Below, piece after piece: positions 3,188 through 23,413 of a stretch of 32,000 nucleotides of DNA. Position 1 is the first letter of the stretch; each line of letters starts with the position of its first letter. A program made the translations under genes and the position numbers. The DNA comes from Thermodesulfobacteriota bacterium (GTDB taxonomy: Bacteria > Desulfobacterota > WTBG01 > JAGOGO01), in contig CP113000.1 of the NCBI GenBank assembly GCA_026625185.1, positions 2,742,651-2,774,650 of the forward strand, given 5' to 3'. The notes beneath the pieces were generated by a model. It was not told where the DNA came from, made no database searches, and saw only the letters and a list, made by a program, of their open reading frames with translations.

Positions 3188-3929
3188 CGTTTTGGAAAAT
3201 TTTTTTTTGTTTTAACCGGTTATGAAGAAGCTTTCTTACCTCCCCGGAAGGTAATACGACATAGTCGCCTGGCTTGAGGTTCCCAAGTGAGAACGGCCCA
3301 AAGGTTATTCGTTTTAGTTTTAGCACCGAATGCCCCACTGCAGAAAACATACGCTTGATAAGTTTATTTCTTCCTTCAGTGACCGTAACCCGTAGCCAGC
3401 TGTTGTTTTTTGTTTTACCAACCAAAACCACCTTGGCAGGGAATGTGATCCCGTCAGTGAGAAGAATGCCCATGCGAAGATTTTTAATTGTTATAAAATC
3501 CGGCACCCCTTTAACCTTGACCAAATAGGTGCGTGGAACACTGAAACTGGGATGCAGAAGCCTCTGAGCTAATTCGCCGTCATTGGTAAGAAGAAGCAGC
3601 CCTTCAGCGTCGAAATCGAGCCGGCCGACGGGAAATACCCTGACATGAACTTTTTTAAGAAGGTCGATGATTTTGGGCCTGTTTTGAGGATCATCAAGAC
3701 TGGTAATATAATTTAGTGGTTTGTTAAGAAGAATGTAAATTTTTTCTTTATTGGCCGTGATCAGTTTGCCGTTAACCCTGATCTTGTTTTTTTCGAAATC
3801 AGCCAGTGTTCCCAGTTTCGTGATGGTTCGGCCATCTACGCTTACCCTGCCCTCCTGGATAAGGTCTTCGGCTTTTCGACGGGAGGTAATGCCCGCTTCA
3901 GCGATAATTTTCTGTAATCTTTTTTTCAT
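3168..3929 (-). CDS. rluB: 23S rRNA pseudouridine synthase, RsuA/RluB family
   Basis: 253 aa. It has an N-terminal S4 domain (ITSRRKAEDLIQEGRVSVDG) and the catalytic motif VGRLDFDAEGLLLLTNDG. It lies directly downstream of scpB, as in many bacteria. Confidence 0.85.
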   Translation of the reverse strand: MKKRLQKIIAEAGITSRRKAEDLIQEGRVSVDGRTITKLGTLADFEKNKIRVNGKLITANKEKIYILLNKPLNYITSLDDPQNRPKIIDLLKKVHVRVFPVGRLDFDAEGLLLLTNDGELAQRLLHPSFSVPRTYLVKVKGVPDFITIKNLRMGILLTDGITFPAKVVLVGKTKNNSWLRVTVTEGRNKLIKRMFSAVGHSVLKLKRITFGPFSLGNLKPGDYVVLPSGEVRKLLHNRLKQKKIFQNDVRKDE

Positions 3930-3944
3930 CCGTGCGGCAAGACA

Positions 3945-4571
3945 TTACTGCTGATGGTCATCATCAGCAACAAGTGTTATCTCCTCAGGAGCAGAGGGCG
4001 TTTCTGGTTCCTCCTGAAGTTTTTGGGAGAATAGCGGCAACATCGTTGCATCTACCTGACTGATATCCTCCAAGGCGGGGAGGTCTTTTAAGGCCTTTAA
4101 GCCGAATATGGTTAAAAAATTCGGGGTCGTGCTGTAGATCAAAGGTTTGCCGGGCACATCCTTTTTCCCGACAATTTTTATCAGGTTTTTTTCCAAAAGC
4201 GCGCGCAGAATACCACCGGCATCAACCCCCCGCACATCTTCTATTTCCGCTCGGGTGATGGGTTGTTTATAAGCGATAATCGCCAGAGTTTCCAGCGTGG
4301 CCGGACTCAAACGCGCCGGACGGATTTTTTTGAATTTCTTGATCCAGGGAGAATATTCGGTTTTGGTGTAAAACTGGAAGCCACTGGCAACCTCCCGGAT
4401 CGCGAAACTGCGGTTTAAATCCTCATATTCTTTTTTGAGTTCCGCCATTATCTCCCGCAAATCCTTCACTGGAGTGTCAAGAAAAATTTCGTTTAGTTTT
4501 TCCAGCCTCATCGGAGTCTCAGTGGAAAAAAGCAGACTTTCCAGAATAAGCTTAATTTCTGTCCGTTCCAA
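3945..4571 (-). CDS. scpB: segregation and condensation protein B
   Basis: 208 aa with typical ScpB winged-helix repeats (LESLLF...PM..., LSPATLETLAIIAYKQPITRAEIEDVRGV). Confidence 0.85.
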   Translation of the reverse strand: MERTEIKLILESLLFSTETPMRLEKLNEIFLDTPVKDLREIMAELKKEYEDLNRSFAIREVASGFQFYTKTEYSPWIKKFKKIRPARLSPATLETLAIIAYKQPITRAEIEDVRGVDAGGILRALLEKNLIKIVGKKDVPGKPLIYSTTPNFLTIFGLKALKDLPALEDISQVDATMLPLFSQKLQEEPETPSAPEEITLVADDDHQQ

Positions 4572-4705
4572 TTATCAGACCTCCAGAATTAAAAGTGTTT
4601 GCCCTAAGAAAACAAATTCTTGGTTAAAAAAAAATTATAGTAAATTCTATTAAAAAACGAAACAAGAATCTCTGATTTTGAAATCAAAAAAGAAATGTGC
4701 AGTTA

Positions 4706-4721
4706 TTATAATTAATTATAA
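4706..4721. repeat. perfect 16-nt AT palindrome TTATAATTAATTATAA
   Basis: It is self-complementary by hand check and contains TATAAT on both strands. It sits in the AT-rich spacer upstream of scpB. Confidence 0.5.
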
Positions 4722-4738
4722 CACTTTTGGCCTGAATT

Positions 4739-4766
4739 CCACTCTTGAGAGGGGTCAGGGGTGTGT
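4739..4766 (-). repeat. partial inverted copy of dispersed hairpin repeat family 1
   Basis: CCACTCTTGAGAGGGGTCAGGGGTGTGT aligns to the reverse complement of 5927-5970 (CCCCTCTATGAAAGGGGTGTCAC...GACGGGGTGT) but lacks the inner hairpin. Confidence 0.4.
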
Positions 4767-4981
4767 CCTTCAAAAAATTGCTCCATAATTCCTACTTAGA
4801 AACCTTCCCCCTCGGATTTCGGAAAACTAGGATAAAAAAATTGACCGGCTTCTTCCCGCCTCTTTATCCCTTTCAAAGCGGTGACTTCCGCGCTTATTAT
4901 CGCATCATCGCTCAAAATGTAATCATTCTTCCTATCACCCATAAAAAAGATAGCGAAAGACTTTTGAAAACGTTGAAATAA
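4745..4981 (+). pseudogene. RelE/ParE-family toxin remnant (N-terminally truncated, no antitoxin gene)
   Basis: The C-terminal half, KKLTG..PLYPFQSGDFRAYYRIIAQNVIILPITHKKD, matches the RelE/ParE signature G-D-[FY]-R-x-x-Y-x-I...V-I-I-L-x-I-x-H-[RK]-K-D. The frame only opens at 4736, and the first residues are read out of a dispersed repeat copy. No upstream antitoxin ORF is present. Confidence 0.4.
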
Positions 4982-5055
4982 ACTATTTTTCTTTTCGTAA
5001 GCCTTGAGAAGCGTGACGAATTTAGGTTTTAATTTTCTTGTGTTATAATAACGTT

Positions 5056-5889
5056 ATGGATATTCCAAAGAGAAAACTGGGTAAAACCGGCGTGGAGGTT
5101 ACGATCCTGGGTCTGGGAGGAGAAGGTATCCTCCGGACTTACGGTTATGAAAAAGAAGCGTATGATTTGATCAATCGGGCCATTGATCTCGGGATCAACT
5201 ACTTTGAATCGGCGCGGGCCTATTCCGGAAGCGAATCCTATTACGGCAGGTCTTTGAGGGAGAGGAGAACGGAAATCTTTCTCACCAGCAAATCTCACGC
5301 GAGAAGCAAGCAAGGAGCTTTGCTTCATCTTCAGGAAACGCTCAGAAATATGAAGACCGACCACCTTGACCTGTGGCAAGTTCATGATGTGAGGACAGAG
5401 GAAGACGTGGAGGAGATCTTAGGTCCCTCTGGGGCCCTTGAAGCTTTTGTTGAAGCAAAGGGCAATGGTCTGGTCCGGTTTATCGGTGTGACCGGCCATC
5501 ATGATCCTCTCATCACCAAACAATGTCTTCACCAATTCGACTTCGATACGGTTCTGATTCCAATTAATCCGGCGGAACCGGCTTACAAAAGCTATTTGAC
5601 GGAAGTCATTCCTTTGGCGAATAATAAGGGAATGGGTATTGTCGGCATGAAGGTCTATTTTAGAGGATTAGCCGCTAAACTGCCGTGGTTTGAAACCATG
5701 GAGCCCTTTTTCCGTTTTGCCCTCTCTCAGCCGATAACGACCGCGGTCATTGGATGTGATGACCTGGAACAGGTTGAAGAGAATGTAAGGTTAGCAGGGT
5801 CATTCTCTCCCCTGACTGAAAAAGAGACTCAGGAGCTGATCAGGAAGGTCTCCCCCTTTGCGCGGGAGTTCATGTACTACAAACCCTGA
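5056..5889 (+). CDS. aldo/keto reductase
   Basis: Track ORF 5038..5889. The ATG at 5056 gives MDIPKRKLGKTGVEVTILGLGG, a typical AKR N-terminus, and DLWQVHD and GVTGH motifs are present. Confidence 0.85.
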   Translation: MDIPKRKLGKTGVEVTILGLGGEGILRTYGYEKEAYDLINRAIDLGINYFESARAYSGSESYYGRSLRERRTEIFLTSKSHARSKQGALLHLQETLRNMKTDHLDLWQVHDVRTEEDVEEILGPSGALEAFVEAKGNGLVRFIGVTGHHDPLITKQCLHQFDFDTVLIPINPAEPAYKSYLTEVIPLANNKGMGIVGMKVYFRGLAAKLPWFETMEPFFRFALSQPITTAVIGCDDLEQVEENVRLAGSFSPLTEKETQELIRKVSPFAREFMYYKP

Positions 5890-5926
5890 CCCGTCGGGTA
5901 AAAAGGAAAGGCTACTTTTATTATAT

Positions 5927-5970
5927 ACACCCCGTCACTTCGTGACACCCCTTTCATAGAGGGGATTTTC
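5927..5970 (+). repeat. dispersed hairpin repeat family 1, copy 1
   Basis: ACACCCCGTCACTTCGTGACACCCCTTTCATAGAGGGGATTTTC carries two hairpins: GTCAC/GTGAC (5934-5946) and CCCCT/AGGGG (5948-5964). It is about 75% identical to 19544-19584. Confidence 0.6.
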
Positions 5971-6648
5971 CTAAAAATTTAACAACCAGCGATTATCCTT
6001 CAACCACATCTCTGCTTGTTGGTAGTTCGGGAATAAAAGCCTGACTTTTTCCCGGAAGTTTCGTGAATGATTCCGCTCCTCAAGATGAACAAGTTCATGC
6101 ACAATCACGTAATCAACGATCTTCATCGGTGCCATGATCAAACGCCAGCTGAAATTTAGTGTCCCTTTCGGTTCGCAGGAACCCCAGCGTTTCCATGCGC
6201 CGGTAATACTAATCCTCTTAAAACTTAAGCCGGCCGTTTCCGCGTAAAGCCTGACCCGATCCTTGATTACTTCGTACGCTTGCTTTCGATACCATTGTTC
6301 AAAAAGCTGTTTCGCGTCAGATAAAAAGGATTCTGAAAACAAAAATTTCTTTTCATTAAAGACGATGGGTCGCGTGACATCTTGGATAACAAAAAGCGTG
6401 TGCCATTCACCCAGATACAAAAACCTTTCCCCGTCGACAAACTCCCGTTTGACTGACGGCCGAAAGGACTCTCGCGCCAGTTTCTGATGATGCAGTATCC
6501 ATTTTATTTTTTTTTGAACAAACGTGAATATGGTTTCTTCGGAAACTTTTTCCGGTGCCCGCACAATCAGACTCGCGTCCGGTGTAACCTGTAGCGCAAG
6601 TGTTCGGCGTTTTGATCGGATGATTTGTTTAATGAGTCCCTTATCCAT
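5971..6648 (-). CDS. YgjP-like (DUF45/M48-type) zinc metallopeptidase
   Basis: Track ORF 5971..6675; the start at Met10 (6648) is preferred. It has the HELVHLEERNHS zinc motif (HExxH) and a family-typical N-terminus (IIRSKRRTLALQVTPDASLIVRAP). Confidence 0.8.
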   Translation of the reverse strand: MDKGLIKQIIRSKRRTLALQVTPDASLIVRAPEKVSEETIFTFVQKKIKWILHHQKLARESFRPSVKREFVDGERFLYLGEWHTLFVIQDVTRPIVFNEKKFLFSESFLSDAKQLFEQWYRKQAYEVIKDRVRLYAETAGLSFKRISITGAWKRWGSCEPKGTLNFSWRLIMAPMKIVDYVIVHELVHLEERNHSRNFREKVRLLFPNYQQAEMWLKDNRWLLNF

Positions 6649-6693
6649 TGAAGCACCTTCTCGATCACCTGCCATACTATCTTTACTATGCAG

Positions 6694-7167
6694 TTATGGT
6701 AAACCACTACCCTTTCTCCCGCCCTTTTTCGTTTTATAAACCGCGCCCTTTTCCTTAACCTTAAAACCAATCTTTTTTTGAGAAGACTCCGGCGGTGTCT
6801 TCAGTTGACGGATTGCGTCAAAAACTTCTTTAAACTCGATATGAACCTGGGCCGCGCGTTTGCGTCGCAAGACACTGGAAAGCATAGCAACGCCTTGTTC
6901 GGTAAATGCATAGGGAGCTGGCGGTTGCAGATCACCCCAACTTGAGGTCACAATTTGCGACTTCAAGTTAGCAAGCTCTTGATTTGTAAGCTGAAACATA
7001 AAATCCTCCGGAAACCTTTCTATGTTTCGTTTAACAGCTTCTAACAAAACTTTTGGTTCGACCCCGTAAAGCTCTGCAAGCTCCGTGCTTAACATCACCT
7101 TCTGACCGCGAATCATCCGAATACGCTGTTCGACTTTCTTATCAGAGATAATCTTTCTTTCATCCAT
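6694..7167 (-). CDS. ORF6N (KilA-N-like) DNA-binding domain protein
   Basis: 157 aa. IRMIRGQKVMLSTELAELYGVEPKVLLEAVKRNIERFPEDFMFQLT matches the ORF6N domain pattern. Confidence 0.75.
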   Translation of the reverse strand: MDERKIISDKKVEQRIRMIRGQKVMLSTELAELYGVEPKVLLEAVKRNIERFPEDFMFQLTNQELANLKSQIVTSSWGDLQPPAPYAFTEQGVAMLSSVLRRKRAAQVHIEFKEVFDAIRQLKTPPESSQKKIGFKVKEKGAVYKTKKGGRKGSGLP

Positions 7168-7229
7168 AACGTGTTCTTACAATGAGATGAAATCATTTTC
7201 GATTAGAATAATTTTTTCCTGATTTAATA

Positions 7230-7273
7230 AATAAATTCAAAAAAAGTCAAGAGAAACCAGCTGAATAGCTCCA
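7230..7273 (+). repeat. dispersed repeat family 2, copy 1
   Basis: AATAAATTCAAAAAAAGTCAAGAGAAACCAGCTGAATAGCTCCA is about 80% identical to 10267-10312 in the same orientation. Confidence 0.6.
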
Positions 7274-7309
7274 GTGGGGATTTTTTCGGAAAAGTGATCC
7301 CCGAAAATG

Positions 7310-7801
7310 TTATTGGGGCGCAAGAAAAGATTTTTTTATCCTTTTTTTCTGCTCCTCTACTTTAAGCATCCAGTTTTGGTTTCCCTCCAGGTAGGTCCCT
7401 GCCAAAGAGTTGAATTCTTCGGCCTGACTGATGTTTCCTTTTTGGAGCCACGCCTCGGCAAGGTAATAGTAGTTCTGGCCGTTACCGGGGTTGAGGCTTA
7501 CTGCCCGCTCAAGCACTCTGATGGCATCGTCAACTTTTTTTCGTTTTAAAAGCTCTCGCCCCTGCTCGGTCATTTGTAAAGAAGCCATCGCGCGTGGACC
7601 GGGACGTTCCTCAGGTTCTTTTGGCGTTTCCGGTATAACTGCGGTTTCAGGTTTTGAGGGCGCAGGTGGTGAAGGCAAAGGCGCAGGAGAAGAAGGAGGA
7701 GCAGGAGCAGGCCGGGGACTTGTCATAGTACAGCCTATGGTTACCGACCCTATCGCCGCAAGTAAAATGATTAAAAAAAATTTAAAATTACTCAATGACA
7801 T
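7310..7801 (-). CDS. lipoprotein with Pro-rich linker and TPR domain
   Basis: 163 aa. It has a signal peptide ending ...GSVTIGC (lipobox-like), then a roughly 50-aa Pro/Ala/Ser-rich segment, then TPR-like repeats (AIRVLERAVSLNPGNGQNYYYLAEAWLQKGN). Its start overlaps the PBP1A stop by 14 nt. Confidence 0.65.
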   Translation of the reverse strand: MSLSNFKFFLIILLAAIGSVTIGCTMTSPRPAPAPPSSPAPLPSPPAPSKPETAVIPETPKEPEERPGPRAMASLQMTEQGRELLKRKKVDDAIRVLERAVSLNPGNGQNYYYLAEAWLQKGNISQAEEFNSLAGTYLEGNQNWMLKVEEQKKRIKKSFLAPQ

Positions 7802-10121
7802 CTTTCATTCCTTTCATAATTTTATCTAAAAGACCCATATGCCGGTGAACTGAACAATAATCCGCAGGTGCATTTTCTGCCAGGAAAAATTCTTCCCTTG
7901 GTTCCGGACAGACATCGGAAACAGCGATTTGCCCGCTTTCGGAACAAACAATGCGTTTTACCACCCCCGACGGCATCTTAAACCACTGCCCGGAAATATA
8001 TTCCGGTATGGAATTCACCAGTTCAGCCCAAATGGGCAGAGCAGCGGTTGCTCCTGCCACATGAATGGAATCGCCATTATCAAAGCCAACCCATACCAAT
8101 ACCAGGATATCCGGAGTATACCCCACAAACCAGGCGTCTTTATAATCATTGGTCGTGCCTGTTTTTCCCGCTACCGGAAACGTTACTCCCTTTGTTAAGA
8201 GAGAGCGAGCGGTGCCTTCCGTTATTACGCTTCGCAGCAGCGAGCTCATCAAAAAAGCTTTTGCCGGCGAAGTCACCCTTTTAATCGTCATTTGTCGCCG
8301 CTCCAAAACCTGACCTTTTTCATCAACCACTTCCTTTAGGGACAGCGGATGCGGAAGCACCCCGTCAGCGGCAAGAGCGCAGTAAGCACGGGCTAATTCT
8401 ATGGGTATGGTTTCAAACGCACCCAGCGCAAGCGACGGATAAGGCTTGACCGGAGTGGAAAACTGAAACGCTTTTGCCGTGTCGACAATCCGGGCCAAAC
8501 CGACTTGCATGGCCAGGTCAACAGTAGCAATGTTAAGGGACTTGGCCAGCGCCTTTCTTACGGTAATCCGTTCTTCTGAATCCGGCTCATAGTTTTGCGG
8601 TTTCCATTTTTTCCCATCAACCACATAGGTTTTAGGGGCATTGGATAAAATAGAAACCGGAGTAAATGAATCCAAAGCGCTCAAATAAACGAAGGGTTTA
8701 AAAGCGCTCCCCGGCTGGCGTCGGGACTGGGTGGTCCGGTTAAACTGGGTTTGATTGTAATTTCGGCCGCCAACCAGAGCCAGGATGTACCCCGTATTTG
8801 GCTGCATAACAATTAGTGCGCCCTGAAGCTTTTTTTCGGGTTCGGATCGACGGAGCTGGGGATAAGACTTTTCGAGGCGGGAAAGCCCGTTGGCAAGCGC
8901 CCGCTCTGCTGCAGCCTGAACCTGAGTATCCAGGGTGGTGTAAAGAGAAAGCCCGAGGTTGGATAAGGTCTCCGGTGGATAGAGGAGTTTAAGCTGATCG
9001 GCAAGGTAGTCAATGAAATAGGGAGCTTTATTGGCATAGACCATAAAGCCGGTTACCGTTACCGGCTTGGCGGAAGAAGTCTTAAGTTCCTGATCTGAGA
9101 TAAAACCCTGTTTAAACATGGCCTGCAATACCAGGTTTCTCCGCTCCTGACAGCGGTTTTTATCAGTATAAGGTGAATAGTAGTTCGGCGCCCGGATCAG
9201 TCCCGCTATCAAAGCCGATTCAGCCAATGAGAGTTCGCTCACCGGTTTGCTGAAGTAAAAATTTGAGGCTTCCCCCACGCCATTGATAGAGACCGAGCCT
9301 TTTTGTCCCAGATAGATTTCATTGAGATAGATTTCCAGGATTTCGTCCTTGGAATACCTGATCTCAATGTTGATGGAAATGAGAAGCTCTTTCACCTTTC
9401 GGGAAATGGTTTTCGCTGGAGTAAGAAAATAGTTTTTCGCCAACTGCTGGGTGATGGTAGAGCCTCCCTGACGTAATGCAAGGTGACGCATGTTGGTAAG
9501 CATAGCTCTCACTATTCCCAGGGGATCAACGCCGTGATGATGATAAAACCGATTATCCTCAGTCACGATTATGCCATCGATCAGGTACCGGGGAACCTGC
9601 TTGAGTGAAACTAGCTGCCGCTTCTCCCGCTCCGGGCCGAAGAAAGACATAATCTCTTCGGGTTCCAATTCCAGAATCGGCACCGGCTCACCCGTAGCCA
9701 GACGCGAGATCCCAATGATAATATTTTCAGAAAATTTGACCTGAACCGGGAATCCCTCCTGCTTTTGAGAAGGAATCTCGAAGTCATGTAGAAAAAGGGC
9801 AATTCCCGAACCTGAGGCACAAAACTCGCCTTTTTGCGTTGGGTTATGGGAGACCTTACGGTAGCCAAGACGATACAGTTTTGAAAAAAAAAGCTCCCGG
9901 TTTATGGTTTGTCCCGGATAGAGAACGGTAATGTCGGAAAAAACTTTCGAAGGAATACTCCAACGCCTTCCCGAAAACCGCTTCTCAATCTGGGAGGAAA
10001 GACTCCAGCAGTAAAGACACAAACCTATTACAAAAACAATGACCCCGGATACTGCGATCCAAAACAGCGTCCACCCGGATTTCTTCGCCATTCTTTTTTT
10101 TCTCTTAGCTATTTGGTCCAT
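7788..10121 (-). CDS. mrcA: bifunctional class A penicillin-binding protein (PBP1A family)
   Basis: 777 aa with an N-terminal TM anchor. Glycosyltransferase motifs (EDNRFYHHHGVD, RQGGSTITQQ) and transpeptidase motifs (SAFKP, KTGTT) are present. Confidence 0.9.
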   Translation of the reverse strand: MDQIAKRKKRMAKKSGWTLFWIAVSGVIVFVIGLCLYCWSLSSQIEKRFSGRRWSIPSKVFSDITVLYPGQTINRELFFSKLYRLGYRKVSHNPTQKGEFCASGSGIALFLHDFEIPSQKQEGFPVQVKFSENIIIGISRLATGEPVPILELEPEEIMSFFGPEREKRQLVSLKQVPRYLIDGIIVTEDNRFYHHHGVDPLGIVRAMLTNMRHLALRQGGSTITQQLAKNYFLTPAKTISRKVKELLISINIEIRYSKDEILEIYLNEIYLGQKGSVSINGVGEASNFYFSKPVSELSLAESALIAGLIRAPNYYSPYTDKNRCQERRNLVLQAMFKQGFISDQELKTSSAKPVTVTGFMVYANKAPYFIDYLADQLKLLYPPETLSNLGLSLYTTLDTQVQAAAERALANGLSRLEKSYPQLRRSEPEKKLQGALIVMQPNTGYILALVGGRNYNQTQFNRTTQSRRQPGSAFKPFVYLSALDSFTPVSILSNAPKTYVVDGKKWKPQNYEPDSEERITVRKALAKSLNIATVDLAMQVGLARIVDTAKAFQFSTPVKPYPSLALGAFETIPIELARAYCALAADGVLPHPLSLKEVVDEKGQVLERRQMTIKRVTSPAKAFLMSSLLRSVITEGTARSLLTKGVTFPVAGKTGTTNDYKDAWFVGYTPDILVLVWVGFDNGDSIHVAGATAALPIWAELVNSIPEYISGQWFKMPSGVVKRIVCSESGQIAVSDVCPEPREEFFLAENAPADYCSVHRHMGLLDKIMKGMKDVIE

Positions 10122-15373: not shown

Positions 15374-15684
15374 AGATTTTTTTCATCCCCGGTTTTTGTA
15401 ATAACAAAAGGGAATGGGAAGTGTTTTCATTGCCTAAAGTTTGGATAAACGTGACCCTTTTTTAACAAAGACTAGCGCTAAAGTCAATCATAACCTGAGA
15501 AAATTTTATAAAATAATATAGTTAAGGAGAAGATTAAAAAAATTATTAAAAATAAGCTGGGTTATTTATAAGTACGGAGGAATTGGAAGTGCACCCTTAT
15601 GAGTGATTGAGCGATATAGAGTTATAGGGGGGTACATTTTATTAAAAGATTTAATTCTCGTAAAGTGAATACGATTGCGATTAT

Positions 15685-16323
15685 CTATTCAATGTTCCCT
15701 TTTCGCTCGCCGGTCATTTTAGAAAGCGGACGGCCTTTCAGATCGAGGAACCCGAGTTGCTGAAAACGCAGGAAGAGTTCCCGGCAAACCCAGGCATCCG
15801 TAGCGGCGTAAACGATTTGCTTCAATGTCAACCGGTGACTGGCCCAGTTGGAAGTGGAGGAGCCTTTGGTGATGCGAAATCCGAGCAGTTGTCCGGCCAG
15901 ACTGCGGAGGCCTGATTGTTTGATGCCTTGCTGCTTCGCCACGAGGCTCAGGTCAATGATGTTTTGAGGTTTAAACGGAAAAACCTTCTTGAGATTCAAA
16001 AAATCGTCAGCCAGCCCGATGCCTGCCTTGATAATAGCCGGATTTTCCAGCACTTCCGTCAACGCGTCGGAAAATTCCATCCGTTTCAACTGAAACAGAT
16101 ACGCCACTGATGCGGTGGCAATTTGTACCAGGCAAGGCAGATTAAATTGACCTTTGCGGAACGTGGGCTTCGTTTCCGTATCCAGGCCCACCACCTGTTC
16201 CCTGCGGATCACATGAAGCGCCCGCTTCAAGTCCTGAGCTGACGCGACCAGGCAAATCGTCCCCTCGTATTTCCGCACCGCCAACTGGCCGACTTCCTCT
16301 CGGGTCATGGTTTGGTATACCAT
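15685..16323 (-). CDS. 3'-5' exonuclease (DEDDy, RNase D/WRN-exo-like)
   Basis: 212 aa with ExoI VGLDTE, ExoII AGIGLADD and ExoIII YAATDAW. Confidence 0.8.
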   Translation of the reverse strand: MVYQTMTREEVGQLAVRKYEGTICLVASAQDLKRALHVIRREQVVGLDTETKPTFRKGQFNLPCLVQIATASVAYLFQLKRMEFSDALTEVLENPAIIKAGIGLADDFLNLKKVFPFKPQNIIDLSLVAKQQGIKQSGLRSLAGQLLGFRITKGSSTSNWASHRLTLKQIVYAATDAWVCRELFLRFQQLGFLDLKGRPLSKMTGERKGNIE

Positions 16324-16439
16324 GTTGAACTCCTCGTCTTAGTCCTTTTTCATAAAAATCTTGGTGCAATTTTTACAACGCTCGATTCCCGCACAATGAT
16401 GTGGTGTAACGCACCCGCACAGTATCACTCCGGCTTTCC

Positions 16440-16451
16440 TTGGCATGCCAA
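16440..16451. repeat. perfect 12-nt palindrome TTGGCATGCCAA with a nearby half-site repeat
   Basis: It is self-complementary. CATGCCAAT recurs at 16475-16483. It lies in the pdxH/exonuclease intergenic region upstream of the exonuclease gene. Confidence 0.4.
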
Positions 16452-16562
16452 TTACAATAGCCTACTGATAATAACATGCCAATCAACAAATCAATTCCTT
16501 CCCCATGGGACAACTTTTTCAAGGGTAAAGCTCATTTATTTCCTCAATCATGTCGTGACCCC

Positions 16563-17246
16563 TCAGGGTGCAAGAGAAACTTTCTCCCACGTGCCGTTAT
16601 TTAAAACATAGTGCTCCCTTTGATGAATCCAGTCGAACCTTCCTTCCCAGAATTCTATTTTTTCAGGGACCAGGCAATACCCGCCCCAAGAGTCCGGACA
16701 GGGGATGGTTTTTCCCTTATAACGACTCTTGATCTGATTCACCTTTTCCACCATTTCCTCCCTTCCGCGGATAATACTGCTCTGCGTGACTGCGGCCGAA
16801 GCAGCTTGGTTTTCCCGGTTGCGGGCTTTCCAGTAAGCCTCTGCCTCTTCACGGGAAAGCTTTAGGACCATGCCATCGATGCGGACTTGGCGCGGAGGAA
16901 AATGCCAGTAAAAAACCAAGACCGCCGACGGGTTGGCAGCCAACTCTTTCCCCTTTTTGCTTTCATAGTTTGTGTAAAAGGAAAACCCGCCTTGAGCAAT
17001 CCCCTTAAATAGAACGGATCTGGCGGCAGGCCTGTTTTCGGGTGTTACGGTTGCCAGGGTGGCAATGTCCGGCCAGAGGAGGTTTGACCAGGGAAAAACT
17101 GCCGACAGCAGCCGCCTGATAACCTGTACCCCCCATGAGATCACCCGTTTTTTCGAAAATAAGCCACTTCCACCCGTTTGGGCCTCCTCATACCATTTGA
17201 GAAATAGTGCTATGGGGTCCGGCGTTGCGGAATCATTCCTTTCCAC
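16563..17246 (-). CDS. pdxH: pyridoxamine 5'-phosphate oxidase
   Basis: 227 aa. It has FYTNYESKKGKELAANP, a RQVRIDG motif region and the C-terminal EFWEGR...R.HQR pattern typical of PdxH. It uses a GTG start after GAGGA. Confidence 0.9.
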   Translation of the reverse strand: MERNDSATPDPIALFLKWYEEAQTGGSGLFSKKRVISWGVQVIRRLLSAVFPWSNLLWPDIATLATVTPENRPAARSVLFKGIAQGGFSFYTNYESKKGKELAANPSAVLVFYWHFPPRQVRIDGMVLKLSREEAEAYWKARNRENQAASAAVTQSSIIRGREEMVEKVNQIKSRYKGKTIPCPDSWGGYCLVPEKIEFWEGRFDWIHQREHYVLNNGTWEKVSLAP

Positions 17247-17295
17247 ATTGTCCTCAATAAAACCTGATAAAGAACATTTACGGTGCTGTGATAAT

Positions 17296-17400
17296 TGCTA
17301 ACACGCGCCTATAACCCGCAAGCAACCAATGCCACAGACTGCCGGGCAAAACCAGTGAGCTTGCCCCGTGGTTCCTTGTCAGGTTGATTCGCGGTTAGCC
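17296..17400 (-). other. attC-like site A (105 nt) after the tautomerase ORF
   Basis: In minus sense it reads GGCTAAC (17400-17394) ... GTTAGCA (17302-17296). Hand-folded helices are GCTAAC/GTTAGC, CGCG/CGCG, ATAACC/GGTT(g)AT, CAAGcAACCA/TGGTTcCTTG and GGGCAA/TTGCCC. The boxes deviate by 1-2 nt from consensus. Confidence 0.6.
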
Positions 17401-17420
17401 CTTGCGTTGAGACAGTACAA

Positions 17421-17639
17421 CTACTGGCGTGCCCGCAGCTGCTTCACATCGTCGGTAGACAGCGTTTTGCCGCCCATTCCCCAGTCACCACTTTTAATTT
17501 CCTCAATGATGACGACCGTTTTTTCTCGCAGGTTTTCGCCCTCCAAAGTTACCATCGCTTCGGTGACCTTCTCGATCATCCGTTGTTTCTCGTCGCCCGA
17601 GAAAACGCCCTCAATCACTTTGATCGTTACTAGTGGCAT
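17421..17639 (-). CDS. 4-oxalocrotonate tautomerase family enzyme
   Basis: The ATG at 17639 follows AAGGAGGTGA. MPLVTIKV... has the catalytic Pro1. The 72-aa beta-alpha-beta monomer size is typical of 4-OT. Confidence 0.85.
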   Translation of the reverse strand: MPLVTIKVIEGVFSGDEKQRMIEKVTEAMVTLEGENLREKTVVIIEEIKSGDWGMGGKTLSTDDVKQLRARQ

Positions 17640-17685
17640 GTTGATCACCTCCTTTCTCGCGTTGAGATCAGTCAGTCTTTGAGAC

Positions 17686-17757
17686 GGCTAACGAAAAGCT
17701 CAGCCGCGCGCGACTGGCGGCACGCCGTAGCGCGTCGGCTGCAGCGCCATGTTAGGC
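17686..17757 (-). other. attC-like site B (72 nt) after the hydrolase ORF
   Basis: In minus sense it reads GCCTAAC (17757-17751) ... GTTAGCC (17692-17686). Helices are GCT/AGC, CAGCCG/CGGCTG, CGCGC/GCGCG and GGCG/CGCC, with single unpaired bases at 17742 and 17735 and a 3-nt loop. Confidence 0.7.
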
Positions 17758-17782
17758 GTCGCCTCCCCTTGCAAGCTTGCAC

Positions 17783-18565
17783 TCAGGCGAGGCTGCGTCG
17801 GATTTCTGCAACCACGTGGTCTGGGGCCGCGTGCACCGCGAGGTGGCCTTGTCCTTCGAGGATTCGAACCTCCGCTTTGCGCAACGCCGACTTGTATGCA
17901 CTCGCAATCTCCATCTGAAATTGGGGGCTGGCGCCACCAACGAGAAACGTAGTGGGGCAAGTGACATTGCGCAGCCTGCTCATGTCGAACTTCAAATTCA
18001 CTAGTGCTTCTAATTCCCTTGGTATTGTATTTGCCAGCGCGACACGCCTTGGCCACGCTGGAAGGGCGCGCATCTGAGCGATGTCCTCAGGCGCCACACT
18101 CAGAAGGATGGACAAGAAGCTGCACAGGGCCTCTTCATTCTTGCCTACCGCTAATAGAGGGAGCATCTCGTTTCGCAGTGCTTCGGGCCAATAGGGCAAT
18201 GCGCCGGGCAATGGTGGCTCGTACGCCACAATTCGCCGGACGTTTCGTGTCAGTAGGGCAGCCTCCAGCGCACAGAGAGCACCAAATGAGTGACCTACAA
18301 CGTCAACTGGCTCTCCGATGCTATCGATAAGCCCCGCAAGGTCGGAGAATTCCTTCTCTATCTCGTATTCCGGGTGGTCGCCACTATCTCCCCGCCCGCG
18401 ACGATCCATGCTCAGAACGCGGTGGGCGTTCGCGAGTGCCGGGACCACTGGCAACCAGGAAGTGGAGTCGACGCTAGTCCCATGCACAAGTATTAAGGGA
18501 CTGCCACTCCCGAATGGCGTGCAGCCGATCGCCGTGCCGTCACTCGCTCGGTATGAGATGGTCAT
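17783..18565 (-). CDS. alpha/beta hydrolase
   Basis: Track ORF 17783..18640. The ATG at 18565 follows AAGGAGA. It has HGTSVDSTSW (oxyanion region) and VVGHSFGA (nucleophile elbow). The gene is GC-rich; single 60-nt lines hand-count at 55% and 75% GC. Confidence 0.85.
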   Translation of the reverse strand: MTISYRASDGTAIGCTPFGSGSPLILVHGTSVDSTSWLPVVPALANAHRVLSMDRRGRGDSGDHPEYEIEKEFSDLAGLIDSIGEPVDVVGHSFGALCALEAALLTRNVRRIVAYEPPLPGALPYWPEALRNEMLPLLAVGKNEEALCSFLSILLSVAPEDIAQMRALPAWPRRVALANTIPRELEALVNLKFDMSRLRNVTCPTTFLVGGASPQFQMEIASAYKSALRKAEVRILEGQGHLAVHAAPDHVVAEIRRSLA

Positions 18566-18609
18566 ATCGTGTGTCTCCTTGAGATGTCTGGGAAGAAGCC
18601 GATCTCGAC

Positions 18610-18744
18610 GCCTAACGCTAAGCTGAGTGACGAGTGTCACTGAATCGCACTCGTTTACTCAAAAACTGTTTTGCACTACTCAAACTGACAACATGCCAGA
18701 AAAGCGTCCTGTGGCACTCGTTCAACTCCAGCGCGTTGTTAGAT
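18610..18744 (-). other. attC-like site C (135 nt) after the nuclease ORF
   Basis: In minus sense it reads ATCTAAC (18744-18738, 3 nt after the stop) ... GTTAGGC (18616-18610). CTAAC/GTTAG pair at the termini. A 15-bp helix joins 18622-18636 to 18715-18732, with three single-base bulges. Confidence 0.65.
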
Positions 18745-18747
18745 GAT

Positions 18748-19254
18748 TTATAAATCAATACCCAGTACGTATATAGGCACTTGAATCGCACTCTTAAAAT
18801 GGGGCAAGTAGCGAGTTACTTTTTCAAAGCTCAAGCTACCATCCCAGTTTTGTTTATATTCTTTGCTCATCTTTTTTTGAAATGCCCTTGTTGTAGTTAT
18901 ATAAACACCGACATCAATTTTATCTAAACCTGAATATGATGCAACCTGAAATTTCAGTATATCAATGCCAATGAACGAAGAATGACCGAACTCTACTTCA
19001 ACCCCGACTCGTCCCTTCATAAAATCCATCCTTGCAGAAGGGTCACCTTGTTCATCAAAAACCGCTGGCTGAGCCTCCCAACCTTGAGCCTGAAATAATT
19101 GATCCAATATCTCGTTAAATCTTGGTCTGGACAGTTCAGATATATTAATTGATGGATTAGTCAATATCTGCTCTATTTCTTGTTTTATTGCTAACTGGCT
19201 ATTTAATACCTGTTCAGCAAATCGAAAAGAAAATGTCTGCAAGCGAATGGTCAT
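18748..19254 (-). CDS. BglII/BstYI/BamHI-fold type II restriction endonuclease-like protein (no adjacent methyltransferase)
   Basis: 168 aa. From memory of BglII, VLNSQLAIKQEIEQIL resembles ILNPQLWKEIEETLL, and RMDFMKGRVGVEVEFG resembles DIDFGKRDTLVEVQFS (a D77-x8-E86-x-E88 catalytic pattern). VGVYITT...GSL...VPIYVLGI resembles VAIIITK...SSL...VPIRLVGL. The gene is AT-rich (one line hand-counts at 30% GC). Confidence 0.65.
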   Translation of the reverse strand: MTIRLQTFSFRFAEQVLNSQLAIKQEIEQILTNPSINISELSRPRFNEILDQLFQAQGWEAQPAVFDEQGDPSARMDFMKGRVGVEVEFGHSSFIGIDILKFQVASYSGLDKIDVGVYITTTRAFQKKMSKEYKQNWDGSLSFEKVTRYLPHFKSAIQVPIYVLGIDL

Positions 19255-19413
19255 ATTATTTTATTCCTTCATCTAACATTGATTATATGTATCTCGACTA
19301 AGAACCCAAACGACGCAAAAATTGCTATATAAGAAACTATAAAATACTTTATTTTTTGGTTCTAACTATTTATTATTTTTATTTAATCAAACTAAAGATC
19401 ACTTCTTCAGTTA

Positions 19414-19441
19414 TTGTCTTATACAGATCAATATAAGACAA
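19414..19441 (+). repeat. 10-bp inverted repeat TTGTCTTATA/TATAAGACAA followed by T6 (terminator-like on + strand)
   Basis: The stem is 19414-19423/19432-19441 with loop CAGATCAA, followed by CTTTTTTAT. No plus-strand gene lies upstream. Confidence 0.35.
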
Positions 19442-19483
19442 CTTTTTTATCAGCCATGCAAAGCCCACCGGGAACATCCTTCG

Positions 19484-19519
19484 GGTATTAAACAACGCAA
19501 AATCGGATTGTTTAATACC
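19484..19519. repeat. perfect 12-bp inverted repeat GGTATTAAACAA ... TTGTTTAATACC with 12-nt loop
   Basis: Hand-checked complementarity between 19484-19495 and 19508-19519. No flanking T-run on either strand. Confidence 0.6.
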
Positions 19520-19543
19520 TTAAAAACACAACCGGATTCTTAC

Positions 19544-19584
19544 ACACCCCGTCACCTTGTGAAACCCCCCTCAAGGGATTTGTC
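19544..19584 (+). repeat. dispersed hairpin repeat family 1, copy 2
   Basis: ACACCCCGTCACCTTGTGAAACCCCCCTCAAGGGATTTGTC aligns with 5927-5970 in the same orientation and keeps the potential for both hairpins. Confidence 0.6.
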
Positions 19585-19632
19585 TATATTCTTGGTTTTT
19601 GGGACATGTTGCAACATCCCCTACATTGGACC

Positions 19633-19678
19633 CAAAACAAAAAAAGGCCCATCGCCCTTAAATCCGGCGATTCGGCCT
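19633..19678 (-). terminator. rho-independent terminator downstream of the DHH-CBS-PAP gene
   Basis: In minus sense it reads AGGCC-GA-ATCGCC-(9-nt loop)-GGCGAT-G-GGCCT followed by TTTTTTTGTTTTG. The stem totals 11 bp (19645-19656/19666-19678). Confidence 0.6.
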
Positions 19679-19866
19679 TATATTGTATCTCATCAGTCAT
19701 TAAAATTCTTCCCACCAAAGACACCCTATTCCATTTTATCACTTATATTTTTTGGGGTTGATATTTTCTGTTTTTTTTAATACTAACCAATTAGAAAGTC
19801 AATAAAAAAAGAAATTGCTATTTTGTCATGCTTCGACAAGTTCACCATGCCAGATCTGGATTATTC

Positions 19867-22491
19867 TTATAGAAAATGCTGTTTAATGAAACTAATCTCG
19901 TCCTCCCGGGTTTTTATTTTTCCGTCCAAACGGGCCCTTAAAAGGCTCTGGAATGCCTGCTTGTATACCCTTCCGGGCGGAAGGCCCATTTTTTTTAAAT
20001 CTTCGCCAGTGAGGAGCGCTCCGGTAAACCGCAGGCGGGTTATATAATTTGAAATCGCCTTTTTTATGGATTGGTGAGAAGTATTCGCCATAAGGTAAAG
20101 CAAGGCTTCCACTGATAAACGGTTGAGAAGTTCGAAAATGGTGCTGTCTTTAAGGGATTTCTGTTCCTGAAGCTTTTTTAAAGTGCTTTTTGCCTGGCAA
20201 CGCTCTGCCAAAACCTTCTTGCTTTCTTTTTTGAGAAAAAAAAGTTTTCGGCTTAAATTTAAAAATTCTTCATCGTTTAAACCGTCAAACATTCCTAAAA
20301 AATAAACAAGCCATTTCCCCAAGGTTTCATTGAGAAACAAAAGCTCAAACCAGGTAAAAACTTCATTAATCGATTCCAGTAAGTCCATAAGACCCGAATC
20401 ATATTTAATCGCGGGGTGAAAAAATTTTAGGAGTTCGAAATCGGCCATCCGCTTGATAAGCGCCGGTGGATTATCTTCCTCTAATATAAGTTCCAATTCC
20501 CCGAAAATCCTGCTTCCCGATAAACGATGGGGGATGTCCATTTTTACGGCATTGCGGATTAAGTTGGCGGTTTCTTTGCTCAAACAAAAACCAAAGCGCT
20601 GTTCAAACCGCAAGGCCCGGAAGATGCGGGTTGGATCTTCAACAAAACTCAAACTGTGAATTACTTTAATGACCCGCTTTTTAATATCCCTCTGTCCGCC
20701 AAAAAAATCGATCATTTCACCGAAATGCCCAGGATTTAAACGAATCGCTAAGGTATTAATGGTAAAATCCCTTCGGTATAAGTCCTGATGAATGGAACTG
20801 AGTTCAACCTTCGGAAGTGCGGCCGGCGACTCATAGTATTCCCGACGTGCGGAAGCAACATCAATTTTGAATCCTTGAGGAGTTCTTATTTGAGCAGTGC
20901 CGAATTTGCGGTGGTATTTGGCAACAAAATTATCACGGGAAGATAAATATTTCGCGAATTTTATTCCTTCTCCCTCAATCACTAAATCAAGGTCTAAATT
21001 TTTTCGACGCAGCAACAGATCCCGCACAAAACCACCCACTGCAAATGCTTGAAAATTCATTTTTTCGGCAACGGTTCCTGCTTTTTCCATAAATTCCAGC
21101 ATCGAGCGCGGCAGCTGTTCTTCCATTAACGAAAGAAGCTTTTTCTCTTTTACTTGAGAAAGATCATAATCAAAACTGTACACCTTTTTCGTCAGTTCTC
21201 TTTGTCCGAGACTCAAAACCCGAAGCACATCAGTGCGGGTAATTACTCCTACTAACTTTCCCGCTTTGAGGATCGGCAAAAAACCTTGACTCTGTTCCAC
21301 GATAATTTTTTGGATTTCAGCCCAGGAGGTATACAGTTTGGCTTTAGAAAATTCGGTAACCATATAGTCTTTGACCAGCAGGTTCTCCAGGTTGTGAGAA
21401 ATTGCCTTCTCAATAACCGGCCGGGAAATAAGTCCGATCAGTTTGCCGTCGTCCATTACCGGCAACGTGCTTAATTGAAAGCGCGTTATGATTTCACCGG
21501 CCGCTTTGATCGGATCATGAGCGTTTATCGTGAGGACCGGGGAAGACATAATATCCCTGGCGGTTTTTAGGGGATTGGTTTCCCGTTTGAGGATCTGTTT
21601 GAGTTTTTCTTCAACCTGGGGTAGCGAACAGTTCTTGATGGTGGCGGAAGCAGCTGTCGGGTGCCCTCCCCCTCCAAATTCTTTCGCGATTTTACTTACG
21701 TCGACTTCGTTCAGCCGACTTCGGGCGACCACGTAAATCCGGTCATGCATCTCAGCCAAGGCAAAAAGCACATTGATATTTTCCATATCCCTGAGCTTAT
21801 GAACCAAAATAGCAAAATCGCTGATGTATTTGTCGGATGAAGCTTTCGCGATAACTACATCAATTCCGTTAATCGTGTGGACCGTGGCCGTATGAACCAG
21901 CTCGTAAAGAAGAGAAATCTGTTCAGCAGTTAGTTCTTTAGTCACCATATCAGAAACAATATTAAGGTTAGCCCCTTTTTTCAGAAGAAAGGCGGCAGCC
22001 AGAAAGTCTTCTTCGGTGGTTGAAGAAAAAGTGAGACTTCCGGTGTCCTCATAAATCCCCATCATCAATATGGTTGCTTCATCGGAAGTGATCTCGATAT
22101 TTTGTTCCTTAAGGATCTGACAAAGGATGGTCGTTGTAGCGCCGACTTCTTTTATCACTTCAACTGAGCCGGAAATGTCATTTTCTGAAGCCGGGTGGTG
22201 GTCGTAAATGTGGATATCTAATCCAGGCTTTTGCAAGATCTCTTTAAATTTTCCGATTCGGTCTTTTTGCCGAATATCCACTAAAATAAGCCGGGTGACT
22301 TTATTAAAGTCAATTTTTTTTATTCGCTCGGTTTGGAGAACGTAGATCGTGGATTGAAGAAAAAAATCCCGCAGCCCCTTCTCCTGTGAACCAGGGAAGG
22401 CGAGTAACGCATGGGGGTAAAGTTTTTTTGCCGCCATCATTGAAGCGACAGAATCAAAATCAGCATTAATATGGGTGGTAATAACTTCCAT
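19867..22491 (-). CDS. DHH/DHHA1 phosphoesterase - tandem CBS - poly(A) polymerase/CCA-adding nucleotidyltransferase fusion protein
   Basis: 874 aa. It has the DHH motifs (DFDSVAS, IYDHHP), the DHHA1 motif GGGGHPTAA and two CBS domains. The class II nucleotidyltransferase head is then present (VGGFVRDLLLRRKNLDLDLV, RDFTINTLA). Confidence 0.85.
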   Translation of the reverse strand: MEVITTHINADFDSVASMMAAKKLYPHALLAFPGSQEKGLRDFFLQSTIYVLQTERIKKIDFNKVTRLILVDIRQKDRIGKFKEILQKPGLDIHIYDHHPASENDISGSVEVIKEVGATTTILCQILKEQNIEITSDEATILMMGIYEDTGSLTFSSTTEEDFLAAAFLLKKGANLNIVSDMVTKELTAEQISLLYELVHTATVHTINGIDVVIAKASSDKYISDFAILVHKLRDMENINVLFALAEMHDRIYVVARSRLNEVDVSKIAKEFGGGGHPTAASATIKNCSLPQVEEKLKQILKRETNPLKTARDIMSSPVLTINAHDPIKAAGEIITRFQLSTLPVMDDGKLIGLISRPVIEKAISHNLENLLVKDYMVTEFSKAKLYTSWAEIQKIIVEQSQGFLPILKAGKLVGVITRTDVLRVLSLGQRELTKKVYSFDYDLSQVKEKKLLSLMEEQLPRSMLEFMEKAGTVAEKMNFQAFAVGGFVRDLLLRRKNLDLDLVIEGEGIKFAKYLSSRDNFVAKYHRKFGTAQIRTPQGFKIDVASARREYYESPAALPKVELSSIHQDLYRRDFTINTLAIRLNPGHFGEMIDFFGGQRDIKKRVIKVIHSLSFVEDPTRIFRALRFEQRFGFCLSKETANLIRNAVKMDIPHRLSGSRIFGELELILEEDNPPALIKRMADFELLKFFHPAIKYDSGLMDLLESINEVFTWFELLFLNETLGKWLVYFLGMFDGLNDEEFLNLSRKLFFLKKESKKVLAERCQAKSTLKKLQEQKSLKDSTIFELLNRLSVEALLYLMANTSHQSIKKAISNYITRLRFTGALLTGEDLKKMGLPPGRVYKQAFQSLLRARLDGKIKTREDEISFIKQHFL

Positions 22492-22498
22492 AACTGTT

Positions 22499-23413
22499 TT
22501 AAGCTCGTGGATGATACTGTTTATGGATCTTTTTTAATCGCTCTTGAGTGATGTGAGTATAAATTTGCGTGGTGGCAATATCAACATGACCAAGCATAAT
22601 CTGCACGCTTCTTAAATCAGCCCCCCGTTCTAAAAGATGCGTGGCAAAAGAATGGCGGAGCGTATGGGGCGATAATTTCTTATTGATGCCGGCTTTTAAA
22701 GCATACCGTTTAAGCATCTTCCAGAATCCTTCCCGGGAAAATTTTTTACCTGAGGGGTTTAAAAACAGGAATGGACTTGTCATTCCTTTCCTGTGCTTTT
22801 GCCGGGCGGTCGCAAGGTATTCCTTCAGATAATGTTTAGCCGTGTCTCCCAAAGGGATTATCCTTTCCTTTGAACCCTTGCCAAAAGCAATTATATATCC
22901 AACCTCCAAATTAATGCTCGTGAGTTTGAGGTTGACTAATTCCGAAACCCGAACTCCGGTTGCATACAGAAGTTCAAGCATGGTGCGATCACGAAGTCCT
23001 CTTATTGTTTTAACATCCGGCTGGGAGAGCAAAGAATCCACCTCAACGACATTTAAAACCGAGGGAAGGTTTGGCCGGATCTTCGGTGATTCGATGTTTA
23101 TAGAAGGGTCCACATCTAAATGACCTTCCTGCACTAAAAATTTAAAAAACGTCCGCACCGCGGAAAGATTTCTACCCGTGCTTTTGCTTGAAAGTCCTTG
23201 AGATTTAACCTCAACCAGAAAAGACATGATGTCTAAATTCGTTAGGTGAAATACTTCAGTGCGATTGTTTTTTTCAAGATAGGTGATAAATTTCTGCAAG
23301 TCCCGGCTGTAGCTTTCGATCGTGTTTTTAGAAAGGCCTTTTTCAACCATCAGATAATTTAAAAAATTATCAAGGTACGCATCCACTGAATTTTGAGAAG
23401 GGTGCTTTTTCAT
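22499..23413 (-). CDS. xerD: site-specific tyrosine recombinase XerD
   Basis: 304 aa. The N-terminus is XerD-like (LDNFLNYLMVEKGLSKNTIESYSRDLQKF). Catalytic R...HTLRHSFATHLL...LGHVDIATTQIYTH are present, and the protein ends YHPRA. Confidence 0.85.
   Translation of the reverse strand: MKKHPSQNSVDAYLDNFLNYLMVEKGLSKNTIESYSRDLQKFITYLEKNNRTEVFHLTNLDIMSFLVEVKSQGLSSKSTGRNLSAVRTFFKFLVQEGHLDVDPSINIESPKIRPNLPSVLNVVEVDSLLSQPDVKTIRGLRDRTMLELLYATGVRVSELVNLKLTSINLEVGYIIAFGKGSKERIIPLGDTAKHYLKEYLATARQKHRKGMTSPFLFLNPSGKKFSREGFWKMLKRYALKAGINKKLSPHTLRHSFATHLLERGADLRSVQIMLGHVDIATTQIYTHITQERLKKIHKQYHPRA

Follow-up and report, generated by a model that had tools for sequence, protein, structure and literature searches.

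A probable cluster of integron cassettes without a neighbouring integrase in the chromosome of an uncultured Thermodesulfobacteriota bacterium

The region described here lies in a stretch of 32,000 nucleotides (hereafter the window; positions 2,742,651 to 2,774,650 of contig CP113000.1, assembly GCA_026625185.1) from a metagenome-assembled genome (MAG) of an uncultured bacterium of the Thermodesulfobacteriota, of the sulfate-reducer type. Three consecutive single-gene units, encoding a nuclease, an alpha/beta hydrolase and a tautomerase, each end there in an attC-type recombination site, and the whole is very probably a chromosomal integron cassette cluster without a neighbouring integrase (CALIN). 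A CALIN has at least two attC sites and no integron integrase nearby (PMC4889954); the attC sites are to lie within 4 kb, and an integrase is excluded at 4 kb or, in the relaxed form, at 10 kb (PMC4889954). The region falls under this definition, because at least two attC sites are found within 4 kb and no integron integrase is found nearby: two sites supported by a covariance model are 853 bp apart, and a third one, supported by its junctions, is located 286 bp beyond. An earlier note, made from the sequence of the window alone, had already read the array as CALIN-like, and this reading is borne out by two matches to an attC model, the signature of the units, the modularity of cassettes 2 and 3 and the absence of IntI.

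All units and sites are read on the minus strand (Table 1). Each site has an R'' box (RYYYAAC) and an R' box (GTTRRRY), and the AAC/GTT pairing is kept in all three, with 2, 1 and 1 nt mismatched between the R'' and R' boxes of sites 1, 2 and 3, respectively. In all three units the opening 6 nt (TTAGAT, TTAGGC and TTAGCC) complement the R'' box of the same unit without a mismatch. It was this relation, in which the start of a unit complements its own downstream box, that the earlier note had described as the signature of a once circular cassette; it holds throughout, and the boxes, distances and unit lengths given there are all correct on the minus strand. The note had also mentioned boxes deviating from the consensus by 1-2 nt; the extent is right, but we count three such boxes and not two (GGCTAAC and GTTAGCC with a single deviating base, GTTAGCA with two). 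The significance of the sites comes from covariance-model matches and junction comparisons, and not from the boxes or from hand-made folds.

Here, we employed a covariance model (R1) made from 15 attC sites of class 1 integrons on 8 plasmids, namely those of qacF, aadB, blaVIM, aadA1, aac(6')-31, arr-3, dfrA27, aadA2, blaIMP-1, aac(6')-IIc, aac(6')-Ib, blaOXA-1, catB3, dfrA1 and aac(3)-Ia. The end of the class 1 attI1 was confirmed by a plasmid search before the attC sites were cut out. Two helices make up the model structure, R with 7 bp and L with 3 + 6 bp; the bulges were kept unpaired, and R1 was run on the whole window with the filters off. Two matches, both full-length, with exact ends and on the cassette strand, were obtained: attC2 (17686-17757) with 38.9 bits (E 7e-8) and attC1 (18610-18744) with 22.9 bits (E 8e-4). 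The next-best match in the window reached 9.4 bits (E 2.3), no match at E<=1 was found in 205 kb of unrelated control loci, and none was found in the related loci L007, L008, L010 and L011 (loci used for comparison carry L numbers). An enlarged model (R2), made from the 15 known sites and 10 newly found ones with attC3 excluded, gave 41.7 bits for attC1, a site that R2 itself includes. Among the 25 aligned sites 84.7% of the R and L helix cells are paired, and with a slid partner this falls to 23-48%. Double-sided changes are seen in 58 cells, a number not reached in any of 500 shuffles. Thus, it can be concluded that the R and L helices covary.

Unpaired bases stand in attC1 and attC2 at model positions 16 and 23, which are the canonical extrahelical positions. 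In attC2 they are C17742 and T17735, the same two bases that the earlier note had seen in the middle site, and both sit on the plus strand, i.e., the bottom strand of the site. Folded as single-stranded DNA, the plus strand of attC2 reaches -32.2 kcal/mol (z -5.0 against shuffled sequences) and the minus strand -26.2 kcal/mol.

The second line of evidence comes from the junctions. Cassette 2 is present in a metagenome contig (L151) in which homology covers exactly window positions 18616-17690 at 95.8% identity, with foreign DNA on both sides; another R' tail (GTTGGAC) and another gene follow there, and the attC scores 38.4 bits. The 5' junction of cassette 2 at GTTAGGC is shared by L149 and L150, where the attC was lost to another insertion. 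For cassette 3 the alignment with L143 extends exactly over 17692-17303 (85%), with the long attC3 hairpin conserved, and L144 has in common with it only the ORF and the 5' untranslated region (5'UTR; window 17674-17400). By these alignments, cassettes 2 and 3 are discrete modules which are bounded between G and TT and have different neighbours. The distal side of the array gives a similar picture. In L101 (PdxH 94%, exonuclease 93% identical) an unrelated attC precedes pdxH, and homology to the window begins exactly at GTTAGCA. Since an unrelated attC is fused there to the same GTTAGCA, the 3' end of attC3 is a genuine recombination junction, and therefore pdxH, too, is a unit of the cassette type. 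Metagenomes were scanned with the 3'-5' exonuclease encoded beyond pdxH, and in every close relative (78-93% identity) the gene comes directly after the last attC. The attC ends about 45 nt before the exonuclease start in L009, L102, L103, L104, L105 and L111, and at least five different attCs (L009, L102, L104, L105 and L111; Table 1) are joined to the same exonuclease 5'UTR, homology being resumed after GTTRRRY. With other loci, homology stops exactly between G and TT at five different junctions.

The cassettes are part of a variable island, and the locus comparison gives panE-xerD-DHH-CBS-PAP-M50-trpS as the ancestral gene order, where DHH-CBS-PAP denotes a DHH-CBS-poly(A) polymerase fusion and M50 a peptidase gene. 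In L007, the closest relative (91% identity in DHH-CBS-PAP), the island is absent, and no more than 141 bp separate the DHH-CBS-PAP gene from the region upstream of M50. In L009 the island position is taken by a RAYT-type element (which has inverted repeats), a gene for a 522-aa membrane protein, an attC of 59 nt (7416-7474) and the exonuclease gene. A weak R2 match in L009 (5744-5798) overlaps an inverted repeat of the RAYT-type element and is probably spurious. The comparison of relatives proposed in the earlier note has thus yielded an empty locus in L007 and, elsewhere, different attCs and cassettes at the same junctions. The array does lie between pdxH and DHH-CBS-PAP as that note had it, but pdxH and the exonuclease gene belong to the same island.

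An integrase was sought by profile scores and by tblastn. The sole tyrosine recombinase in the window is XerD, which scores 157 bits with the integron integrase model TIGR02249 (cutoff 265) and stays beside DHH-CBS-PAP in relatives without the array. Being above the XerD cutoff (Table 1) and below the integron integrase cutoff, it was rejected as a candidate IntI. With IntI1 and the window XerD as queries, tblastn gave no further recombinase in the window, in the left-end DNA or in the related arrays. In the window, IntI is absent within 12.7 kb on one side of the array and 17.3 kb on the other, and both approaches agree with the earlier statement that no IntI-type gene lies there. The array is not a complete integron: there is no intI in the window, no attI-like structure and no promoter above background.

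A number of observations weigh against our interpretation. Loose RYYYAAC...GTTRRRY pairs at a distance of 50-150 nt occur 12 times in the window, so that box pairs alone are not significant, and R1 is a small home-made model and not the attc_4 model of IntegronFinder. The plus-strand folds of attC1 (z -1.3) and attC3 (z -2.0) are not clearly above shuffled sequences. Both models miss attC3 (R1, 2.3 bits on the wrong strand; R2, none at E<=5), and its minus (top) strand is more stable than its plus (bottom) strand (-26.4 vs -19.4 kcal/mol). No occurrence of cassette 1 as a module was found outside this array, and where its ORF has homologues no attC flanks them, the one argument for cassette 1 as a unit being its self-complementary ends. 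No attI-like structure was seen upstream of the first cassette, where the fold of the 130-200 nt before GTTAGAT is not above shuffled (z +0.2) and R1 and R2 find nothing. Finally, no integrase tied to this genome was found in the window and the related arrays that were searched.

As to attC3, a CGCG/CGCG pairing that includes a bulged T lengthens the R stem, and the spacer, the L stem and the bulge lie about 6 nt further in; the site is unrecognised by the models because this 4-bp stem extension displaces the L stem. Enlarging the model to R2 did not rescue it. The search with an attC model that the earlier note had suggested was therefore positive, in the form of the home-made R1, at sites 1 and 2 and negative at site 3. 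Of the long imperfect hairpins described there, the one at site 2 stands out and those at sites 1 and 3 do not clearly do so on the plus strand.

These weaker points also feed a rival explanation, in which the hairpins are ordinary terminators or palindromes of the repetitive extragenic palindrome (REP) type and the boxes are coincidental. Chance box pairs are indeed frequent, sites 1 and 3 are not unusually stable, and a terminator-like hairpin with a T-run is found inside attC2. It is only this inner part (17716-17701) that the terminator scan flags; terminator-like matches in the region are at background (6 found vs 4.9 expected), and the full attC structures end in GTTAGxx and not in a T-run, which is not the form of a rho-independent terminator. 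Such an explanation would not account for two sites matching a model trained on clinical attCs with exact ends and strand-specific bulges, nor for base-exact breaks of homology at five junctions and unit starts that complement their own R'' in three of three cases. We consider it effectively refuted. Rfam gave no match in the window at gathering thresholds and none in the island at E<=1; an attC family seems to be lacking in Rfam, which makes the null result uninformative.

The composition of the cassettes could raise a suspicion of another kind, that GC-rich foreign fragments were joined to an AT-rich chromosome by a chimeric metagenomic assembly. The GC content jumps sharply from 38.6% in cassette 1 to 59.1% in cassette 2 (52.6% in cassette 3, 43.8% in the window), and one sample has an assembly that is interrupted before and after the hydrolase ORF (L003 and L099). 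However, the array is present in at least nine contigs from several independent assemblies, some of them longer than 1 Mb, and is 100% identical in contigs from other samples; the sources include the NCBI MAG GCA_029216075.1 (JARDUI010000012.1), several metagenomes of the Joint Genome Institute and a Logan SRA assembly. An artefact of this kind has practically no probability left, and the doubt about a chimera that the earlier note had allowed for is thereby removed. The array is a further example of the already known CALIN kind, and the terminator, REP and chimera alternatives are rejected.

Within the CALIN interpretation, loss of intI, secondary (attG) insertion in trans and rearrangement are the candidates for the origin of the integrase-less state. 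The cassettes were probably drawn from different pools, since their attCs are heterogeneous and their GC contents disparate. The departure of these GC contents from that of the window also speaks for the cassette interpretation. One variant sees here a decayed sedentary chromosomal integron, with 19278-19866 as the remnant of its intI/attI region. This left end is non-coding and AT-rich (34% GC over 589 nt), the array occupies a conserved place in several related genomes with the ends of the island conserved, the arrays in relatives of the L110 type are longer and contain genes typical of sedentary integrons, e.g., HicAB, and loss of intI is an accepted route to a CALIN (PMC4889954). However, nothing resembling a recombinase pseudogene was detected in 19278-19866 by tblastn with IntI1 and XerD (E<=1e-3), an integrase is likewise missing within reach of the related arrays examined, and both the heterogeneous attCs and the disparate GC are unlike the homogeneous attCs of large sedentary integrons (PMC4889954). 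We regard such an origin as rather unlikely.

In the other variant, which differs likewise only in origin, an integrase acting in trans inserted cassettes at a non-att genomic site (secondary or attG site), and the array grew from there. At the left junction only a GTT is present (GTTAGAT), and nothing before it folds like an attC or attI; the GC contents assign the cassettes to different pools, and integrases are able to insert cassettes at 5'-GWT-3' sites of the genome, from which they may be expressed by local promoters and excised again (bioRxiv 10.1101/2022.09.11.507474). On the other hand, the motifs flanking attG sites are those defined with IntI1 in E. coli and are not transferable to this host, repeated insertion at one secondary site is a less parsimonious route to an array of 3-5 units, and about 590 nt of additional non-coding island DNA are unexplained by cassette insertion. 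This route is possible and is put forward only tentatively. An idea that goes further is that of the island as a recurrent integrase-less cassette platform of the lineage, and not a dead remnant, with ongoing exchange and with conserved ends where the exonuclease gene regularly follows the last attC, the recombinase being a distant IntI or, conceivably, a Xer protein acting on folded DNA. It is based on three cassettes that are identical between strains with diverged flanks and on different attCs at the same junctions, and we consider it improbable.

What is observed in this region is the footprint of integron chemistry, i.e., self-complementary ends, base-exact boundaries, interchangeable neighbours and an empty site; the mechanism of IntI itself is drawn from established integron biology, and here only its footprint is seen. 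The three promoterless single-ORF cassettes would each once have been a circle which an IntI-type integrase could insert and excise. The substrate of the integrase would be the bottom strand of attC (plus strand of the window) in its folded form, cut between A and C of AAC opposite GTT, and circular cassettes would thereby be inserted and excised between G and TT. Such an enzyme may be encoded elsewhere in the genome, may have been supplied transiently by a mobile integron, or may have been lost.

The array resembles the CALINs described by Cury et al. (2016; IntegronFinder, PMC4889954) in that the cassettes have the same orientation, with one ORF per attC, the array is small and no IntI is nearby; its cassettes are unrelated to antibiotic resistance, and nothing essential differs. 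CALINs are common and well described, and 83% of them have fewer than six attC sites (PMC4889954). What is additional here is the evidence of turnover, namely the empty site, the alternative cassettes and two distal units without attC. Like the attC sites of class 1 integrons, attC1 and attC2 have 7-bp R boxes, an unpaired 5-nt spacer, an L stem of 3 + 6 bp in which positions 16 and 23 are bulged, and a variable loop, and attC2 ends in GTTAGCC as does the class 1 aadB site. Beyond the boxes there is no relationship in primary sequence, the bottom-strand bulges are C and T here and G and T in the aligned aadA-type sites, and attC3, with its R-stem extension of 4 bp, does not fit the model. With sedentary chromosomal integrons such as the Vibrio superintegron the array shares its chromosomal location and its unknown or accessory cassettes, and toxin-antitoxin cassettes are found in the related L110; unlike them, it has no platform of intI, attI or Pc, and three heterogeneous attCs instead of homogeneous repeats. 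Insertion at attG (Loot et al., bioRxiv 10.1101/2022.09.11.507474) is similar in that a GTT without att-like structure borders the first cassette and a host promoter would be needed, whereas a multi-cassette array and not a single isolated cassette (SALIN) is present here.

We thus describe a comparatively validated CALIN from an uncultured Thermodesulfobacteriota lineage, with exact junctions, an empty site and alternative cassettes in sister lineages. This favours the opinion that arrays without an integrase participate in the flux of cassettes and are not inert debris. The nuclease, hydrolase and tautomerase genes are best regarded as horizontally acquired modules, which matters for the annotation of this MAG and for surveys of environmental cassettes; the general understanding of integrons is unchanged by this array. 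Secondary points worth noting are the atypical attC3, the exonuclease gene capping arrays, the orphan BglII-like cassette and the identity of the cassettes across diverged strains.

Table 1. Positions of the features discussed (window coordinates unless a locus is named; sites and cassettes are numbered in the direction of the minus strand).
Feature	Position	Strand	Remarks
Left junction GTTAGAT	19271-19277	-	G belongs to the recipient site, TTAGAT is the start of cassette 1
Cassette 1	18616-19276	-	661 bp; one ORF and attC1
Cassette 1 ORF	18748-19254	-	BglII/BstYI-type nuclease, 168 aa; Pfam PF09195, E 7e-46, full profile
attC1	18610-18744	-	135 nt; R'' ATCTAAC 18744-18738, 3 nt past the nuclease stop; R' GTTAGGC 18616-18610; long variable loop; R1 match
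Cassette 2	17692-18615	-	924 bp; one ORF and attC2
Cassette 2 ORF	17783-18565	-	alpha/beta hydrolase, 260 aa; Pfam Abhydrolase_6, E 3e-24
attC2	17686-17757	-	72 nt, canonical; R'' GCCTAAC 17757-17751, 25 nt past the hydrolase stop; 5-nt spacer, L stem; R' GTTAGCC 17692-17686
Cassette 3	17302-17691	-	390 bp; one ORF and attC3
Cassette 3 ORF	17421-17639	-	4-oxalocrotonate tautomerase family, 72 aa; Pfam Tautomerase, E 2.5e-14
attC3	17296-17400	-	105 nt, atypical; R'' GGCTAAC 17400-17394, 20 nt past the tautomerase stop; R' GTTAGCA 17302-17296; junction-supported
pdxH unit	16563-17301	-	starts at TTAGCA (17301); no recognisable attC downstream
pdxH ORF	16563-17246	-	NCBIfam TIGR00558, 191 bits (cutoff 180)
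3'-5' exonuclease gene	15685-16323	-	distal island unit; Pfam PF01612
Variable island	15507-19864	-	4.36 kb; between the DHH-CBS-PAP gene and the M50 peptidase gene
Intrinsic terminator	19643-19679	-	about 190 nt past the DHH-CBS-PAP stop
DHH-CBS-PAP fusion	19867-22491	-	Pfam/NCBIfam
XerD	22499-23413	-	TIGR02225, 383 bits (cutoff 329.6)
attC-exonuclease junction, L009	7416-7517
attC-exonuclease junction, L102	223-325
attC-exonuclease junction, L104	1437-1563
attC-exonuclease junction, L105	2903-3011
attC-exonuclease junction, L111	157-289

The nuclease of cassette 1 also matches the PADLOC model REase_II (E 1e-9), and no methyltransferase was called within about 10 kb of it. Its family gave 1794 matches, which are almost invariably 168 aa long and 70-89% identical, in Bacteria as well as in Archaea up to Asgard and Bathyarchaeota MAGs; this degree of conservation is unusual for a restriction enzyme. 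The tautomerase cassette has a 5'UTR (gtctcaaag.ttgactga.ctcaacg.gcgaaaggag, which includes TTGACT) that is conserved in three unrelated contexts, namely in the window (17640-17691), L143 (2335-2387) and L144 (7966-8000), and that may be a cassette-internal promoter or a translational leader.

The two distal units were also considered as cassettes with an intact attC. No attC-like fold or model match was found after pdxH (16324-16562) or after the exonuclease gene (15374-15684), and with no attC at either 3' side they were regarded as fixed units. Both look like older cassettes that lost their attC. In L110 the exonuclease gene closes an array (945-8630) with at least three strong attCs, the cassettes of which encode a GNAT protein, a ParB-like protein, a SEC-C protein, a glyoxalase and HicAB. 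Since distant homologues of the exonuclease (40-45% identity) have no attC nearby, its link with attC is confined to one clade; the gene may represent a cassette fixed long ago, or else one that is conserved at the end of arrays. PdxH has an N-terminal region of roughly 56 residues outside the Pfam and NCBIfam matches, its start codon being uncertain, and about 30 residues appear to be inserted behind the conserved N-terminal helix.

A strain variant (L100) was aligned with window positions 19220-16390. There are 0 mismatches over about 2.1 kb of cassettes (19174-17075), and the flanks diverge by 1.3% in pdxH and by about 20% in the intergenic DNA beyond pdxH. This pattern suggests a recent acquisition or a recombinational sweep of the cassettes.

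Transcription of the cassettes would start within the 589-nt non-coding stretch, downstream of the intrinsic terminator, which is predicted to insulate them from read-through. A perfect TATAAT is located 5 nt before GTTAGAT with a poor -35 element, and the promoter scan of the region gave nothing above background. The terminator is preceded by a promoter-like TTGACT...TATTAA (window 19643-19760, no Rfam match), and a small transcript of about 100 nt before the terminator is possible. The left-end non-coding DNA has no counterpart in the fetched loci, except for a 41-nt stretch in L009. Within it, ATTGACTTTctaattGGTTAGTAttaaaaaaaa (window 19765-19797), at the left end of the island, resembles ATTGACTTTagcgctagtctttgTTAAAAAA (15462-15493), which is located upstream of the M50 gene beyond the right end. 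The identity is about 64% over 33 nt by manual count, the left copy is conserved in L009 (4592-4632), and the likeness could be due to a duplicated promoter or target sequence, or to chance.

In five Desulfarculaceae loci (L018, L020, L024, L026 and L084) a second Xer-type recombinase gene directly follows DHH-CBS-PAP. Its product is XerC-like (324.8 bits against a cutoff of 335), so that xerD and xerC flank DHH-CBS-PAP there; it was also considered as an IntI in L018 and similar loci and rejected, being of the Xer type instead.

A recurrent motif, GGGGACG(T/G)T..., replaces attC2 in L149 and L150 after the hydrolase stop (equivalent to window 17778). The same motif follows the exonuclease stop in L104, L105 and L111, and in L009 the RAYT-type element has it as its inverted repeats (near 4650 and 5720). 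It could represent the terminus of a family of insertion sequences (IS) or miniature inverted-repeat transposable elements (MITE) that insert in or near these arrays.

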